A program made the position numbers and the translations under genes. A DNA stretch of 64,000 nt from Actinomycetota bacterium (GTDB taxonomy: Bacteria > Actinomycetota > Geothermincolia > Geothermincolales > RBG-13-55-18): the NCBI GenBank assembly GCA_034188985.1, contig JAXHVT010000023.1:62005-126004 (forward strand), in the 5' to 3' direction. Shown piece after piece: positions 2,121 through 7,854 of the stretch. Under the pieces are notes generated by a model that saw only the letters and a program-made list of their open reading frames with translations, searched no databases and was not told where the DNA came from. How positions within the stretch are numbered: position 1 is the first letter of the stretch; each line of letters begins with the position of its first letter.

Positions 2121-2407
2121 GGTGAGAATTATATACTTCCCCGTAAATCATATTCAATCGCTATGAGCGACGTATCCCGGCCGCGCGAGAGGGATTGATT
2201 ACTCATGAGGATGTCGCGATCTCCCGAGCCATGCACAGCCCGCTGCAACGCCCGCGCCATACGACAGGACGGGTGTCCACTCGGCGCGCCGCGGCGACGG
2301 CCCCACGGCCGCCGGCGCGGAGAACCGGGGCAGACCTAGCGGACGCTCGGGGCGGCGGCGACGGATATCGACAGCCGGTAAGCACCGGGAGGAGAGAGAT
2401 GTCCCGC

Positions 2408-2436
2408 TTTCCAGCCGGTGGTTATTCCAATAGAAT
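2408..2436 (+). promoter_or_regulatory. Candidate sigma70-like promoter (TTCCAG-16nt-TAGAAT) for wecB
   Basis: The track ORF 2195-2506 preceding wecB has low third-position GC, unlike true genes here, so it is read as non-coding. It contains a -10-like TAGAAT with a plausible -35. Confidence 0.25.
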
Positions 2437-2506
2437 TGTGCGTGTGCGAGAGATGCTATCGACAGCGATTACCGCTCGCACCGCGTCGTTTATATGCGTA
2501 GAAGGC

Positions 2507-3610
2507 ATGGTGAATGAATTGAAGATCGCCCTGATAGTCGGCGCACGGCCCAATTTCATAAAGATCGCCCCCATAGTCAGGGAGCTGGAAGAGCGACGCA
2601 TGGACTACACCCTGATACATACCGGCCAGCATTACGATTTCGAGATGAGCGAGACCTTCTTCGCATCCCTGGGCCTGCGGGAGCCCGATTACTATATCGG
2701 GATTGGATCGGGTACTAACAATTACCAGACGGCGAAGGCGATGCTCGGGCTCGAGGGGGTCCTCGACGAGACGGGGCCGGATCTCGTCGTGGTGGTCGGG
2801 GACGTGAACAGCACCCTCGCCGGTGCCCTGTCCGCGGTCAAACTAGGTATCGAGGTTGCTCACGTCGAGGCGGGCTTGAGAAGCTTCGACCGTTCCATGC
2901 CCGAGGAGATAAACAGGGTCCTCACCGACGCCATATCCGACCTGCTTTTCACCTCCTGCGAGGACGCCGACGAGAATCTCGCGAGAGAGGGTATCAGCAG
3001 GGACAAGATATTCTTCGTCGGCAATATCATGATAGATACGCTGGTGGACCTGATGCCCGAGATCAGGCGATCCACGATACTGGAGGAATTTGGCCTGAAG
3101 CGCGGGGAGTACGCATTCGTCACGTTGCACCGACCCAGCAACGTCGATGCCAGAGAGACGCTCGCCGAGATCGCCGGGGCGCTCGAGTCGATAGGAGGCA
3201 TGGGGCTTAGAATCGTTTTTCCGGTGCATCCGCGCACAAGACGGAGGATCGGGGATTTCGGATTAACGGGCAGGTTCGACGGGATTCAGAACCTGATACT
3301 ACTCGATCCTCTGGGTTACGTGGAGTCCATGGCCGCCACGTATTCGGCGCGGCTCGTACTCACCGATTCCGGGGGCTTGCAGGAGGAGACGACTTACCTC
3401 GGGATTCCCTGTCTGACGTTGAGGCCCAACACGGAACGCCCCGTTACTATCCGCATAGGGACCAACGTGTTGCTCGATAAAGGACCGTCGATGATACCCT
3501 CGGCGATGTCGACGATTCTCGAGGGCGGCGAAATACCACACCGGATTCCTGATCTATGGGACGGAAATACAGCGAAGAGGATAATCGAGACGGTGATCGA
3601 CCGCCTGTAG
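2507..3610 (+). CDS. wecB: UDP-N-acetylglucosamine 2-epimerase (non-hydrolysing)
   Basis: MVNELKIALIVGARPNFIKIAPI...HTGQHYD...HVEAGLRS... is the canonical WecB/MnaA signature. Start moved to the ATG at 2507. The ORF-track extension back to 2195 is Ala/Arg-rich with low GC3. Confidence 0.85.
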   Translation: MVNELKIALIVGARPNFIKIAPIVRELEERRMDYTLIHTGQHYDFEMSETFFASLGLREPDYYIGIGSGTNNYQTAKAMLGLEGVLDETGPDLVVVVGDVNSTLAGALSAVKLGIEVAHVEAGLRSFDRSMPEEINRVLTDAISDLLFTSCEDADENLAREGISRDKIFFVGNIMIDTLVDLMPEIRRSTILEEFGLKRGEYAFVTLHRPSNVDARETLAEIAGALESIGGMGLRIVFPVHPRTRRRIGDFGLTGRFDGIQNLILLDPLGYVESMAATYSARLVLTDSGGLQEETTYLGIPCLTLRPNTERPVTIRIGTNVLLDKGPSMIPSAMSTILEGGEIPHRIPDLWDGNTAKRIIETVIDRL

Positions 3611-3636
3611 AGCCCATTCACTCGCCCCGCCCGCGA

Positions 3637-3650
3637 TGACGTTTACGTCA
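3637..3650. promoter_or_regulatory. Perfect palindrome TGACGTTTACGTCA downstream of wecB
   Basis: 14-nt inverted repeat seen directly, followed by a GC-rich hairpin (CCGGCcgtGCCGG). Possible terminator or regulator site. Confidence 0.25.
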
Positions 3651-3874
3651 CCGGCCGTGCCGGTCGTCTCATTAGGCCACGGCTGGACGCCTGGAACGGC
3701 AAGGCGATCTTGAAGGTGAATTACCACACACGACGCCCTTATCAACCCGATAAGAGGTTGCAGGTTTCACCCCGGCCCGTGTTTTACGCCGCCCCAGAGG
3801 AACGACGCAACCCCGTGTATGCCTGTGAAGCAAGAACACATAACCATCCTGACCGGCCTGTCTTATAAAGTAGT

Positions 3875-3906
3875 ACACACTAAATACACATAAAGTGTGT
3901 TATAAT
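3875..3906 (+). promoter_or_regulatory. Extended -10 promoter (TGTTATAAT) with overlapping inverted repeat ACACACT-n12-AGTGTGT (candidate RHH operator)
   Basis: TATAAT at 3901-3906 is preceded by TG, an extended -10. A 7-bp inverted repeat at 3875-3881/3894-3900 lies immediately upstream of the RHH-domain gene. This is the typical arrangement for autoregulated antitoxin operons. Confidence 0.45.
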
Positions 3907-3937
3907 TTGCGTTAGCAATGATTTCGAAGGGAGCACG

Positions 3938-4597
3938 ATGGCGATCAGGGTGAACGTAACCATGCCCGAGAAGTTCCTCGAGGCGGTGGATGACGCGGCT
4001 AGGGAGGAACACCGCGGCCGCAGTGAGCTGATAAGAGAGGCACTCAGGTTGTACCTAAGCCGGGTCGGTGAAAGCGGCGGAGGGGCCGGGGAGGCGAAAC
4101 GGAAGGTGGAGGGAGATACTAAAGCGATGAACGCCGCCAGGGAGGCTGCGCCGGTATCCGGTACGCCCGGGACCGGCTCGCGCCAGGCGCTTCGCGATAT
4201 CCTCCGGGGGGATGGTGACGTGGAGTTGGCCTTTCTCTTGCCGCCCCCGGCTGCGGGTGGAGCGGGGATAGAGGGAGAGGCCCATTTAGCCGTGCTGTTA
4301 AAGAAGGACTTGACGGGAGGAACGCTCGAGCGGAAGCGGCTCGAACTGCGCCGGCTTGCCGCGGGGGCGGCGGGACCCGACGTTGCGGACGTAATCGTCC
4401 TCAACCGGGCGCCGCCGGGGCTTAGTTACGATGTGGCGGGGAAAGGAAGGGCCGCGTACGAAAAGGAGGATGGGGTGAGGCAGTCCTTCGAGGTGAGCGC
4501 GATAAACGGGTATCTCGATTTCGCGAAGGTGGAGAAGGAATACAACGCCCTCCTGGCCGAGAGGATAAAGAAAGGGGAGATGGTATCTGAACGCTAA
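3938..4597 (+). CDS. RHH (CopG/MetJ-like) DNA-binding domain fused to MntA-like minimal-nucleotidyltransferase-fold antitoxin with degenerate catalytic motif
   Basis: N-terminus MAIRVNVTMPEKFLEAVDDAAREEHRGRSELIREALRLYL is a ribbon-helix-helix. C-terminus VADVIVLNRAPPGLSYDVAGKGRAAYEKEDGVRQSFEVSAINGYLDF matches the MNT C-terminal helix region. The GS...DxD position reads LAFLLPPPAAGGAGIEGEAHLAVLL, giving GS->PP and DID->EAH. Confidence 0.65.
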   Translation: MAIRVNVTMPEKFLEAVDDAAREEHRGRSELIREALRLYLSRVGESGGGAGEAKRKVEGDTKAMNAAREAAPVSGTPGTGSRQALRDILRGDGDVELAFLLPPPAAGGAGIEGEAHLAVLLKKDLTGGTLERKRLELRRLAAGAAGPDVADVIVLNRAPPGLSYDVAGKGRAAYEKEDGVRQSFEVSAINGYLDFAKVEKEYNALLAERIKKGEMVSER

Positions 4598-5015
4598 ACC
4601 GATCTGGAGGCTTCTCGATCATCTCAGGGAGGTTCTTGGCGAGCTCTCGAGGCTGCATGCGTGGGGAGCGGCGGATCTCCGGGAGCAGCGGGATTTCAAG
4701 GAGGAGAGAGCCCTTGAGCGCTGCCTTTACCTGGCCATCCAGGACGTGCTGGATATCGGTTCCCACATCGTTTCCTCGCTGTCTCTGGGGATGCCCGAGT
4801 CCTACCGGGACATCGTGGATAAGCTGGGCGGCGAGGGGGTAGTCCCCATGGAGCTGGTGGAGCGCTTGAGGGAGCTGGCCTCCTTCAGGGACGTCCTGGA
4901 GCACGGGTACCTGGCGCTCGATGCCTCCCAGGTCCGCGAATATCTTGAGCGGGGTGGAGACATGGAGGAATTCGCCCGCTGCGTGGTGGACTTTCTCGAT
5001 GACCGCGGGACTTAA
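4587..5015 (+). CDS. hepT: HepT-like HEPN toxin (DUF86), start codon uncertain
   Basis: Rx4HxY HEPN motif (FRDVLEHGY). ORF track gives 4746-5015 from an internal GTG. The same frame is open back to 4569 and encodes a HepT-like N-terminus (IWRLLDHLREVLGELSRLHAWGAADLREQRDFKEERALERCLYLAIQD). That stretch has no in-frame ATG/GTG/TTG. It overlaps the mntA-like stop at 4595-4597. Confidence 0.55.
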   Translation: MNAKPIWRLLDHLREVLGELSRLHAWGAADLREQRDFKEERALERCLYLAIQDVLDIGSHIVSSLSLGMPESYRDIVDKLGGEGVVPMELVERLRELASFRDVLEHGYLALDASQVREYLERGGDMEEFARCVVDFLDDRGT

Positions 5016-5331
5016 GTGACTCGCGTCGTGACCGGCCGGCGCAATAGCTAAGCTAGGGGCGGGGAGGCCGGAAGGTTGATCGAAGATTTGGTTGGAGGTG
5101 CGGTAATGCGGGAGACGGGATGCGGGATCGACGGCGTGGAGCCCATATGGCGGCGGTATCAGCCCTCGATCGGGTCGAAAACCGAAGACCTCGGCGCGGA
5201 ACGTGAGATCGACGTGAGATACCGGGGGACCCGGGAGGCGGACCACGGCGTCGTAAGTCTGGGACATGGTTGTAGAATCGGGTATAGGCCCGGGTGGGTC
5301 GATGATAGCGATGCGAGGGAGGGACGTTGAT

Positions 5332-6147
5332 GTGAGAAGAGCGATACCGGCGTCCTTGGCCCTGCTGTTGGTGGCCGCTGTGGCCTGCTGGGGATGCGGC
5401 GGCGGAAAGGAGCCCCGGGCCTGGCTGGACGAGACCTCCCAGTCCGCGTCCCGATATATCGAGGATGGGGGCTATCTCCATTTCGGGGAGGAGGTTGAAT
5501 ACCGGCTGACCACCGGGGAATCCAGCGTGGAACAGTCGATCGAGATGGAGGGCGACAACATCTTCCCCTACCGCCAGCGTTACGATTACCGGGAGACGGT
5601 GATCAGCGCGGAGATGCCGGATCAACCCCAGGAGAACAGTTTCTCCTACTTGACCGTCGATGGCGGAGCGACGGCGTTCGTGGAGGGGGAGCGCCTCACG
5701 GAGCAGCTGGGAGTTATCGGATGGATACATTACACTCCCACCGAGGAGGAAAACCGTTTCTTCAACTACCCCGACCTGATAAAGACCCTTACCAGCACCG
5801 AGGACGAGGTGAGGAGCCTGGGTTATAAGGAAGTCGACGGGACGAGATGCGTCCATCTCCAGTACAAGGTCAGCGGGGAGGATCTGATGCGGATGCGCCT
5901 GCAGGAGGATCCCTCACTGCAGGAGAAATACCAGGACGTGGATATATCAGAGCTGTTCGATGACATGGAAGTAGAGCTGTGGATAGGCGAGGACGACGGC
6001 CTGCCCCGGCAGGTTGTCATGAGCCAGGTTATCCTCGAGGAGGAGCAGGCGAATGCCGAGATACGCTTTCATATCCTGCTGAGTGGATACGGTGAGGAGG
6101 CGCCTGTGCAGATTGAGCAACCCGCCTTCTTCACAGATGCCATGTGA
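5332..6147 (+). CDS. Lipoprotein of unknown function
   Basis: GTG start with an AGGGAGGGA SD. Signal peptide MRRAIPASLALLLVAAVAC has a lipobox (AVAC). The mature ~250-aa acidic domain has no recognised motif. Confidence 0.55.
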   Translation: MRRAIPASLALLLVAAVACWGCGGGKEPRAWLDETSQSASRYIEDGGYLHFGEEVEYRLTTGESSVEQSIEMEGDNIFPYRQRYDYRETVISAEMPDQPQENSFSYLTVDGGATAFVEGERLTEQLGVIGWIHYTPTEEENRFFNYPDLIKTLTSTEDEVRSLGYKEVDGTRCVHLQYKVSGEDLMRMRLQEDPSLQEKYQDVDISELFDDMEVELWIGEDDGLPRQVVMSQVILEEEQANAEIRFHILLSGYGEEAPVQIEQPAFFTDAM

Positions 6148-6183
6148 CTCGAGGGACCGGGTGCTGAAAATGGGATTTGCGGC

Positions 6184-6192
6184 TGGTATAAT
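6184..6192 (+). promoter_or_regulatory. Extended -10 element TGgTATAAT upstream of the 6251 operon
   Basis: TATAAT at 6187-6192 preceded by TG. Candidate promoter for the EamA-like/GT4/GT2/GT2/membrane-protein operon. Confidence 0.3.
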
Positions 6193-6250
6193 ACGCTAGA
6201 TTCTTTCATCAACCGGATATGGATTCCGTAACGCGGGGTTAGGAGGAGAT

Positions 6251-6661
6251 ATGCACGCAGCGATCAAGCCGACGTCTTTCGTTTTAATATTTTTCGCGGT
6301 GACCCTTGCCGTAGCGGGCCAGATCTGCCTCAGGCGGGGGATGAACACCCTGACGGAGAGGACGGGTCTGGAGGGCACCGACCTCCTCAAGCAGCCGATC
6401 ACATTCATAAAGGAGATCTGCAAGACCTGGGTGGTCTTGCTGGGACTGCTCTTCTTCGTCTCCTCTGCCTTCTTCTGGCTGATGGTACTGTCATCCGTAC
6501 CGCTGGGCGTGGCGTATCCCTTCGTAGCCCTTACCTATATCGCGGTCATGGTTTACGACAAGATATTCGAGAACTATCCCATCAACGCATGGAACTGGGT
6601 GGGGGTGTTCTTGATCGTCACGGGAGTGATCATGATATCGATGAGGGCCACTCCGGAATGA
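6251..6661 (+). CDS. Small 4-TM DMT/EamA-like membrane protein (ArnE/ArnF-like candidate lipid-linked sugar flippase subunit)
   Basis: 136 aa with four hydrophobic segments and an EamA-like C-terminal pattern (...GVAYPFVALTYIAVMVYDKIFENYPINAWNWVGVFLIVTGVIMIS). Confidence 0.6.
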   Translation: MHAAIKPTSFVLIFFAVTLAVAGQICLRRGMNTLTERTGLEGTDLLKQPITFIKEICKTWVVLLGLLFFVSSAFFWLMVLSSVPLGVAYPFVALTYIAVMVYDKIFENYPINAWNWVGVFLIVTGVIMISMRATPE

Positions 6662-6693
6662 CGCCTGTAAGGGAGGCTGGAGCTGAACTGAGG

Positions 6694-7854
6694 ATGAAGG
6701 TCGTATTCGACGGCACTCCTTTCCTGCTGGAGAAGACGGGGATAGGGCATTACACCGACAACATGATCGCCCAGCTCCTACGGGAGTCGGCGGGGCTGGA
6801 GATAAGCCTATTCACCATCTCTTTACGGGGCGGTCACCGCCTGAAACGATCCGCCCCCGCTATTCCCGGGGTGGAGGCTAGAGGCTATAACCTTCCAGCC
6901 AACTTCCTGTACTATCACTGGTGGAATAGGACTTCTCTTTTTCCCGCGGAGAGACTGGTGGGCGAGTTCGATATCTTCCATTCCACCAACTACCAGGCGC
7001 CGGTCCTGCGGGAGGCGCGACTGGTATCCACGGTACACGATATAAATTTCGTGCGCTTCCCGGAGATGCAGAGCAGGGGCATCAGGCGATTCATCAAGGC
7101 CCTGCCGCCCCTCCTGGAGAGGTCCAGCGCCGTCCTGGCCGACTCCCACTTTACAGCCGGGGAGCTGATGGAGGTCTACGGCCTGCCCGGGGATAAGCTG
7201 CGGGTGGTCTATCCTGGCCTGAACCCTGTTTTCAGGGACGAGCCCGGGGCGGAGGAGACGGAGACCTCGCTGCGCGCCTACTGCCTGGAACCCCCCTACC
7301 TCGCCTATATCGGCAGCCTGCATCCCCGCAAGAACCTGGCCACGCTGATCGAGGCCTATTCCATGTTGCGTGACCGGGGTCTGGAGCACCGCCTGGCGGT
7401 GATAGGCGGAGGGGGCTTGGGGCAGCTTCATAACGTCGAGTATCGCAAGCTCACCAGGCGGGTGAGGGAGCTGGGCCTGGAGGAAAACATAGTGTTCACC
7501 GGGTACGTACCCGACGAGCGCCTGAAATGCCTACTAGTCGCGGCGGACATGATGGTGTTCCCGTCCATCTACGAGGGATTCGGCCTGCCGCCGCTGGAGG
7601 CCATGGCCTGTGGCGTGCCCGTCATCACCTCGCGACGGGCCTCCCTGCCGGAGGTGGTGGGTGATGCCGCCCTGCTTCTGGAGGACCCCCTGGAACCCAC
7701 CGAGATAGCGGACAAGGCGGAGGCCCTGCTCTCCGATACCTCCCTTCGCTCCGAACTGGTGGAGCGGGGCCGCGAGCTATCGCGCCGTTTCACCTGGGCG
7801 AAGGCGGCCCGAGAAGTGCTGCAGGTCTACCGCCAGGTAATGGAGGGAGGATAG
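6694..7854 (+). CDS. Glycosyltransferase family 4
   Basis: Starts MKVVFDGTPFLL (GT4 N-domain). C-terminal EGFGLPPLEAMACGVPVITS is the E-x7-E motif. An alternative ATG at 6658 overlaps the upstream stop as ATGA. Confidence 0.8.
   Translation: MKVVFDGTPFLLEKTGIGHYTDNMIAQLLRESAGLEISLFTISLRGGHRLKRSAPAIPGVEARGYNLPANFLYYHWWNRTSLFPAERLVGEFDIFHSTNYQAPVLREARLVSTVHDINFVRFPEMQSRGIRRFIKALPPLLERSSAVLADSHFTAGELMEVYGLPGDKLRVVYPGLNPVFRDEPGAEETETSLRAYCLEPPYLAYIGSLHPRKNLATLIEAYSMLRDRGLEHRLAVIGGGGLGQLHNVEYRKLTRRVRELGLEENIVFTGYVPDERLKCLLVAADMMVFPSIYEGFGLPPLEAMACGVPVITSRRASLPEVVGDAALLLEDPLEPTEIADKAEALLSDTSLRSELVERGRELSRRFTWAKAAREVLQVYRQVMEGG

Follow-up and report, generated by a model that had tools for sequence, protein, structure and literature searches.

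A lineage-specific degenerate RHH-MntA antitoxin preceding a HepT frame without a canonical start codon in an Actinomycetota glycan locus

A two-gene module related to the HepT/MntA toxin-antitoxin systems lies at positions 3938-5015 of a 64,000-nucleotide (nt) stretch of DNA, referred to here as the window, from an Actinomycetota bacterium (GenBank assembly GCA_034188985.1, contig JAXHVT010000023.1, positions 62,005 to 126,004). The upstream gene encodes an antitoxin in which a ribbon-helix-helix (RHH) domain is fused to an MntA-like minimal nucleotidyltransferase (MNT) fold, and it is followed on the same (+) strand by the frame of a HepT toxin. Among toxin-antitoxin families, HepT/MntA is considered the most abundant, and enzymatic neutralisation is its defining trait. 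In this module the catalytic motif of the antitoxin has been replaced, and the HepT frame has lost its canonical start codon. The locus is most fittingly classed as a degenerate, lineage-specific variant within an undescribed RHH-MntA/HepT subfamily; it lacks the GSx10DxD motif of type VII systems, yet clearly descends from that family. The coordinates of its features are collected in Table 1.

The fusion of an RHH domain to an MNT fold had been proposed in an initial annotation made from the sequence alone, and it is confirmed by the Pfam RHH_1 match, by homology and by structure. A profile built from 117 homologs, with the window protein left out, aligns the whole antitoxin (119 bits, E 6.9e-39), and NCBIfam MntA_antitoxin gives a sub-threshold match to residues 114-197 (E 1e-7, 31.8 bits against a cutoff of 60). 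Pfam NTP_transf_2 is silent on the antitoxin, yet an MNT gene upstream of HepT is supported by both profile and structure. The AlphaFold model (predicted local distance difference test, pLDDT, 79.7) comprises an RHH domain at residues 1-45, a disordered segment at 47-79 and a confident MNT fold at 80-211, within which the loop 102-114 is poorly defined. When the MNT domain was searched with Foldseek, the top matches were the MntA chains 7aer_A and 6m6u_A (E ~4e-6), followed by others including 7ae9 (range 4e-6 to 1e-4), all from the MntA complexes of S. oneidensis and Aphanizomenon flos-aquae. A single-sequence search of the PDB returned no match, and a profile search was needed. The linker between the two domains varies in both length and sequence across related fusions. 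In the NCBI record the antitoxin is named only as a 'ribbon-helix-helix domain-containing protein', the MNT domain having been missed.

Degeneration of the antitoxin is concentrated in the catalytic loop. Where the family columns read (A)YLFGSxAxGxAGPxSDxDVAVLL, the window reads AFLLPPPAAGGAGIEGEAHLAVLL, in the same register in the alignment and in the window-free profile. The substitutions G102P, S103P, S113G, D114E and D116H leave PP...GEAH in the GSx10DxD columns, with PP for GS and ExH for DxD, and the replacement of the active-site residues noted in the initial annotation is thereby borne out. A literal GSx10DxD string, GSRQALRDILRGDGD, does occur at residues 80-94 (window 4175-4219), but the claim of a lost motif stands: the string is a chance match, because it sits within helix alpha-1, with the motif columns 22 residues further downstream, and its register is wrong in both profile and model. 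A screen based on a GSx10DxD regular expression would nevertheless count this antitoxin as catalytically intact. A compensated double frameshift was also considered as the origin of the loop; the other two frames, inspected by eye, give a stop or unrelated residues, and scrambling by frameshift is further contradicted by the in-frame alignment, which preserves A105, G107 and A118 together with the hydrophobic pattern on either side. In MntA, GS-to-AT or DxD-to-ExE mutants were reported to abolish AMPylation and impair neutralisation while HepT was still bound (PMC7641770). Since these equivalent mutations abolish AMPylation, we infer by analogy that the window antitoxin is catalytically dead.

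The HepT frame is open from 4569 to 5015 and overlaps the antitoxin frame at 4569-4597. As initially described, it carries the Rx4HxY motif and contains no in-frame ATG, GTG or TTG within 4569-4745, the first canonical start codon being the GTG at 4746. The segment upstream of this GTG is real coding sequence, as had been suspected: the HepT models match there, with NCBIfam HepT_toxin spanning residues 25-128 of the open frame and beginning well upstream of 4746. None of the motif residues R105, H110 and Y112 varies among 120 homologs. The AlphaFold2 (AF2) model of HepT (predicted template-modelling score, pTM, 0.83) superposes over its full length on YutE and HEPN toxins with template-modelling (TM) scores of 0.8-0.9, and a comparison with the same group gave 0.82-0.86. 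The modelled HEPN fold is complete and well conserved, with its catalytic residues retained; the substitutions G103S and N106D beside the catalytic arginine may weaken the ribonuclease (RNase) further. PADLOC returned no match for either the antitoxin or HepT. The sole HepT product on record is an 89-residue gene call in the Logan assembly.

Comparison with homologs places the original HepT start well upstream of the GTG at 4746. HepT homologs are 135-148 residues long and begin 9-13 residues before a conserved LDHLR, so that they do not normally start at the equivalent of this GTG. In each of the eight other loci examined, HepT opens with ATG, GTG or TTG, with an overlap of 4-20 nt at the antitoxin stop; the window is the sole exception among nine. 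Because 8/8 other loci use these codons, the missing canonical start is, on comparative grounds, a derived, lineage-specific loss. The relevant differences lie within a few codons. The change at codon 1 relative to L003 (GGT to GGG) is synonymous in the antitoxin frame; codon 4 is TAT in the window and TTG in L003, where it is the start with the better Shine-Dalgarno (SD) sequence; and codon 5 is the CTG at 4587 in the window and ATG in L004 and L008.

Of the two non-canonical starts suggested by the initial annotation, this CTG remains a credible candidate and the ATC at 4602 does not. The duplex with the anti-SD sequence is predicted at -12.5 kcal/mol for CTG 4587, no weaker than for neighbouring genes, compared with -11.8 for the antitoxin ATG at 3938, -4.0 for GTG 4746 and -2.9 for ATC 4602, which has no SD. 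CTG 4587 is therefore the only credible non-canonical start, and if HepT is made, it would be made from there at a low level; CUG initiation in E. coli amounts to ~1-2% (range 0.02-3%) of AUG initiation (10.1101/063800). The N-terminal truncation of 48 residues that had also been entertained does not hold, as initiation at GTG 4746 would remove 53-57 residues and the codon falls within helix 2. The resulting 89-residue product is not credible because helix 1 and the invariant E48 and R49 would be missing. Two further routes were discarded: the ATG at 4580 belongs to the antitoxin frame, adjoins the SD without a gap and codes for no more than MVSER, and a +1 frameshift fusion of antitoxin and toxin has no recognisable signal and none conserved in the orthologs, whose frame relations differ.

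Upstream of the antitoxin, an inverted repeat ACACAC/GTGTGT at 3875-3900 abuts a TGtTATAAT element at 3898-3906, in agreement with the palindromic operator and extended -10 element of the initial annotation. The operator pattern occurs once in the 64 kb window, against 0.12 occurrences expected, and does so at the module's own promoter. A corresponding block, TACACAy-N4-TACAyA-N4/5-TGTGTT, is common to the otherwise diverged upstream regions of L003, L004 and L008. There is good comparative evidence that the conserved block is an RHH operator overlapping the -10 element, to which binding is putative. Since a sigma-70 two-hexamer scan found nothing, the putative promoter is assigned from the extended -10 element alone. 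The combination of an RHH_1 domain with a conserved operator in its own promoter is that expected of a type II antitoxin, again with putative binding.

Table 1. Features of the RHH-MntA/HepT module, in window coordinates
Feature	Position	Strand	Remarks
Putative operator TACACACtaaaTACACATaaagTGTGTTA	3874..3902	unassigned	two direct half-sites 11 nt apart and one inverted half-site
Extended -10 element TGtTATAAT	3898..3906	+	overlaps right operator arm; no -35 consensus; putative promoter
SD of antitoxin GAAGGGAG	3926..3933	+	anti-SD duplex energy in text
Antitoxin gene	3938..4597	+	RHH, linker and degenerate MntA-like domain; 219 residues; Pfam, NCBIfam, alignment, model
RHH (CopG-type) domain	3947..4057	+	residues 4-40; Pfam RHH_1, E 7.8e-10
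Low-complexity linker	4076..4174	+	residues 47-79; predicted disordered (pLDDT <50)
MNT fold	4175..4570	+	residues 80-211; AF2 pLDDT mostly >90; Foldseek
Degenerate catalytic loop FLLPPPAAGGAGIEGEAHLA	4232..4291	+	residues 99-118; stands in for YLFGSxAxGxAGPxSDxDVA
SD GAAAGGGGAG	4570..4579	+	7 nt before CTG 4587, within the antitoxin coding sequence
GGG	4575..4577	+	L003 has an in-frame GTG here
CTG, most likely HepT start	4587..4589	+	aligns with the ATG start of L004 and L008; preceded by SD
HepT coding region	4587..5015	+	142 codons from CTG; Pfam HepT-like E 5e-20; NCBIfam HepT_toxin E 7e-22
GTG, gene-caller start	4746..4748	+	89-residue product; residue 58, inside helix 41-68; not plausible
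Active-site motif R-DVLE-H-G-Y (Rx4HxY)	4887..4910	+	R105, H110, Y112; includes the tyrosine AMPylated by canonical MntA

phmmer, run exhaustively against 1.84 billion representatives, returned 397 relatives, among which were 16 full-length RHH and MNT fusions (200-244 residues) and ~100 stand-alone MNTs. Queried with the antitoxin by itself, a word-indexed search retrieved nothing but the query, probably swamped by low-complexity words, and a search for related loci with the HepT alignment gave 2 + 5 loci. The RHH-MntA fusion is thus a recurrent architecture, represented by at least 16 clusters at 50% identity. In the four loci inspected (L003, L004, L015 and L016), an overlapping HepT of ~143 residues lies directly 3' of the fusion, and the window has the same arrangement of RHH, linker and MNT within ~200-245 residues followed by an overlapping HepT. 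The L015 and L016 pairs lie in unrelated gene contexts. The GS...DxD motif is kept in 16/16 other aligned fusions, both syntenic orthologs included, so that the connection drawn in the initial annotation between RHH fusion and dead catalysis did not hold up. Because the other fusions keep GS/DxD, fusion and catalytic loss are, as judged from the alignment, separate events. No DNA-binding domain is predicted in the canonical antitoxin SO_3165 (PMC4621449, PMC7641770), and no mention of an RHH-MNT fusion was found in the literature searched.

Several relatives outside the fusion subfamily show other forms of loss. P0022 (L017/L018) and P0154 (L019), the sole fully degenerate MNTs found apart from that of the window, are stand-alone MNTs with the sites ES...ARID and GL...ELGL, and no HepT was found near either in any frame; both end in a distinctive C-terminus, ATGLRHRL, and they may constitute an orphan subfamily of pseudo-MNTs. 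At L012 (Ga0075530_1027867, 816-1709), the HepT that follows an intact stand-alone MNT is divided between two frames by a frameshift; this sequence shows that toxin-first decay does occur in the HepT/MntA family. The HepT of L009 (FWPU01039356.1, 1479-2138) is nearly identical to that of L008, and AT-rich unrelated sequence takes the place of the antitoxin and the first HepT codons, owing either to an antitoxin-removing insertion or to an assembly chimera.

The closest fusions are P0009 (L003/L013) and P0010 (L004/L014, GCA_014360645.1; also L005 and L008), which come from two further Actinomycetota lineages and occupy the identical spot of the same glycan locus. Both retain LFGS...SDxD, canonical HepT starts and the same operator as the window. 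Protein identity between the window and these nearest relatives is only 38-54%; the RHH domain is 68-72% identical to those of the orthologs, and HepT is 50-54% identical to its syntenic orthologs. The gene order shared by the three lineages consists of sugar-nucleotide enzymes, RHH-MntA, HepT, a lipoprotein-like protein of ~271 residues, an EamA-like membrane protein of ~137 residues, a GT4 glycosyltransferase and two GT2s, with a GT87 after the GT2s in the window and L014. The module is accordingly embedded in a glycan island, as initially described, with sugar-nucleotide enzymes 5' and glycosyltransferases 3'.

The three genes downstream of HepT are kept together in all three syntenic lineages (window 5266-7854; L013 2816-5366; L014 11184-13930). 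The first has a lipoprotein-like signal and no Pfam family above cutoff, the second shows a weak EamA match, and the third is the GT4; between lineages, the lipoprotein is ~46% identical as against ~74% for the GT4. The gap between HepT and the lipoprotein gene (5016-5331) measures 316 nt in the window and 62-207 nt in the orthologs. Within it, neither a terminator-like site on the + strand nor an Rfam match was detected, and it contains an 84-residue open reading frame (ORF; 5076-5330) without a Pfam match. This frame and the opposite-strand ORFs 3880-4404 and 4422-5267, likewise without Pfam matches, were taken as high-GC shadow ORFs, and Rfam gave zero matches at E <= 0.1 across 3000-6500. 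On the 5' side, a UDP-GlcNAc 2-epimerase-like gene (Pfam Epimerase_2) at 2195-3610 is recorded with 403 residues in Logan; its mechanical ORF reaches a TTG start giving 471 residues with an Arg/Ala-rich leader, and the true start is uncertain.

The distribution of changes across the two proteins bears directly on whether the toxin has been retained. Conserved columns were defined as those with the same residue in >= 80% of homologs (117 for the antitoxin and 120 for HepT). Among 17 such columns in the antitoxin, 7/10 are changed in the catalytic loop versus 0/7 outside it (p = 0.006), the latter including the third carboxylate D151 and the C-terminal Y192 and D194. HepT keeps 23/30 conserved columns, and its seven changes are all conservative (F>L, A>V, M>L, G>S, N>D, I>V and F>M); conserved sites are retained significantly better than in the antitoxin loop (7/30 versus 7/10 changed; Fisher p = 0.012). 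The N-terminal 57 codons of HepT are as conserved as the remainder, and no stop or frameshift was found in either ORF over 365 codons. With losses confined to the loop, conservative changes in HepT and no stops, the data argue for continued selection on the MNT fold and on HepT during the time in which the catalytic loop was free to change. A toxin silenced before the enzyme decayed would be hard to reconcile with this pattern of conservation.

The explanation tentatively preferred, with a probability approaching but not reaching an even chance, is that of an attenuated module in which the RHH domain mediates autorepression, the pseudo-enzyme antitoxin binds HepT, and HepT is made from CTG at a few percent. 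In this explanation, the RHH dimer would repress the operon at the conserved operator overlapping the -10 element, and HepT would be initiated at CTG 4587, possibly aided by ribosomes that finish the antitoxin at its stop codon 8 nt further on, at a few percent of an ATG-driven level. A stoichiometric excess of the pseudo-enzyme antitoxin would then hold the low dose of HepT by binding alone, type II-like sequestration would take the place of Tyr112 AMPylation, and the RNase may be weakened further by G103S and N106D. Neutralisation by sequestration is possible and is favoured indirectly by the conservation pattern; a D39E/D41E MntA mutant still forms a complex with HepT (PMC7641770), and PDB 6m6u is among the structural matches of the window antitoxin. 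A bolder extension, put forward with more doubt than confidence, is that the locus represents a natural reversion from type VII to a type II-like system, in which a DNA-anchored pseudo-enzyme and a CTG-capped toxin have been kept vertically at the head of a glycan operon and may gate that operon.

A number of observations weigh against attenuation. GS or DxD mutants of the S. oneidensis and T. cleftensis antitoxins lose AMPylation and neutralise poorly, and for canonical MntA with overexpressed HepT 'binding is not sufficient' (PMC7641770). The figure of a few percent for CTG comes from E. coli and is carried over to Actinomycetota by analogy. As 8/8 other loci use canonical starts, CTG may be a dead start, and the degenerate MNTs P0022 and P0154, with no adjacent HepT, link catalytic loss to toxin loss. 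Retention of conserved sites in the window HepT is in the lowest ~10% of the 120 homologs. In addition, the ratio of window to ortholog branch, from three-taxon branch lengths with the two orthologs, is 3.3 for RHH, 2.3 for MNT and 2.6 for HepT, versus 1.0-1.9 in five flanking genes. Since the excess of the window branch over the ortholog branches is larger for all three domains than for the flanking genes, constraint on the pair is somewhat relaxed, but not uniformly.

These same observations (a canonical HepT start missing from one locus in nine, orphan MNTs with degenerate sites, the experimental failure of neutralisation by binding only, the low retention in HepT and a branch accelerated 2.3-3.3x) speak for a decaying module, as do the coincidence of catalytic-motif loss with start loss and the frameshifted HepT of another lineage at L012. 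Under decay, a point change removed the HepT start, the toxin fell silent and the enzyme site drifted, leaving at most an RHH autorepressor and a fossil toxin ORF; this is a serious possibility, although judged more probably wrong than right. A HepT that had long been silent should erode like the loop, and instead its changes are all conservative, whereas some of those in the loop are radical. Moreover, the MNT fold outside the loop is wholly kept, the 365 codons remain open, and a strong SD is preserved before the CTG, though this SD also lies within the antitoxin coding sequence. A very recent loss of the start would reconcile decay with these data, but would require a long prior coexistence of a dead antitoxin and a live toxin. 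A quite different role, considered improbable and overlapping with the other explanations, is that of a domesticated regulator, the module promoter driving or tuning the downstream lipoprotein, EamA-like and glycosyltransferase genes with HepT as a co-regulator or specific RNase. Three lineages, with a flanking GT4 only ~74% identical, have the module at this position and co-directional with a shared set of downstream genes, a positional stability unusual for a toxin-antitoxin module, and the region between HepT and the next gene shows no + strand terminator-like site; against this, the operator pattern is confined to the module's own promoter within the window, and the L015 and L016 pairs occur in unrelated contexts.

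Two remaining explanations are regarded as very improbable. HepT might be made and AMPylated in trans by an intact MntA paralog, with the local antitoxin serving only as repressor and scaffold. HEPN/MNT pairs are often present in multiple copies per genome (Makarova 2009, PMC2701414) and Tyr112 of the Rx4HxY motif is kept, but no second MNT or HEPN gene was found in the 64 kb window, to which the search was limited, the rest of the metagenome-assembled genome (MAG) lying outside it; the lost start codon would also be left unexplained. Equally remote is the idea that HepT arises by another route (the 89-residue product or a +1 frameshift fusion) or that the junction is an assembly error. Gene callers do report the 89-residue ORF, natural fused MNT-HEPN proteins are known (PMC13000451), and the two frames overlap; against these stand the absence of an SD before GTG 4746, the loss of helix 1 with E48 and R49, and the lack of any shift signal. 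As for an artefact, the Logan assembly of SRR24907504 is 100% identical to the window over 1301 nt (3800-5100), though the two assemblies probably share the same reads.

If HepT is still made by the attenuated module, the locus would provide a natural antitoxin in which the fold has been kept and the chemistry lost, would show that evolution can cross the divide between types VII and II, and would offer a ready pair for gauging how much toxin an MntA can restrain by binding only. Should HepT be silent, the locus would simply capture one moment in the decay of a toxin-antitoxin pair and serve as a warning to annotators, the 89-residue 'HepT' call being wrong. The RHH-only name together with that call would conceal the module from domain-based toxin-antitoxin surveys. 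The RHH-MntA fusion subfamily itself supplies a dedicated DNA-binding domain that canonical MntA lacks.

Among known systems, the type VII HepT/MntA pair of S. oneidensis (SO_3166/SO_3165; PDB 5yep, 6m6u, 7bxo and 7aer) resembles the window in having MNT followed by HepT in overlapping ORFs. Its MntA is the best structural match of the window MNT fold, its HepT fold is matched with target-normalised TM scores (TMt) of 0.85-0.91, and both systems have the Rx4HxY motif with its acceptor tyrosine and a conserved C-terminal helix region of the antitoxin. Unlike SO_3165, the window antitoxin lacks GSx10DxD, which is essential there for AMPylation (PMC7641770), and possesses an N-terminal RHH domain that SO_3165 does not have (PMC4621449); in addition, the window HepT has no canonical start, and sequence identity is only ~20%. 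The HEPN/MNT system of Aphanizomenon flos-aquae (PDB 7ae2, 7ae6, 7ae8 and 7ae9) is likewise close in structure, the window HepT model matching with TM 0.81-0.86 over ~141 columns and the MNT matching too. There, an active MNT without RHH di-AMPylates the toxin, whereas in the window the active site is absent and RHH is present.

The architecture of the window is identical to that of the other RHH-MntA/HepT systems (P0009/L003, P0010/L004, P0011/L015, P0014/L016 and 12 further clusters). These keep G-S and D-x-D in all aligned members and ATG, GTG or TTG as HepT starts in four loci, whereas the window has lost both. In type II systems with CopG/RHH antitoxins (ParD, RelB-type and the HicB-RHH fusions in PMC2701414), an N-terminal RHH domain sits on the palindrome of its own promoter and the C-terminus binds the toxin, and the window pair would need similar stoichiometric binding if HepT is made. 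The toxin-binding part in the window is a folded pseudo-enzyme domain, in contrast to the short disordered tail of type II antitoxins, and its ancestry is type VII. Finally, the fused MNT-HEPN protein FhepTA (PMC13000451) has, as in the window, a HEPN part without its own ribosome-binding site and ATG directly downstream of an MNT; in FhepTA the two share one frame and the MNT is active, whereas in the window the frames differ by +1 with a stop between them.

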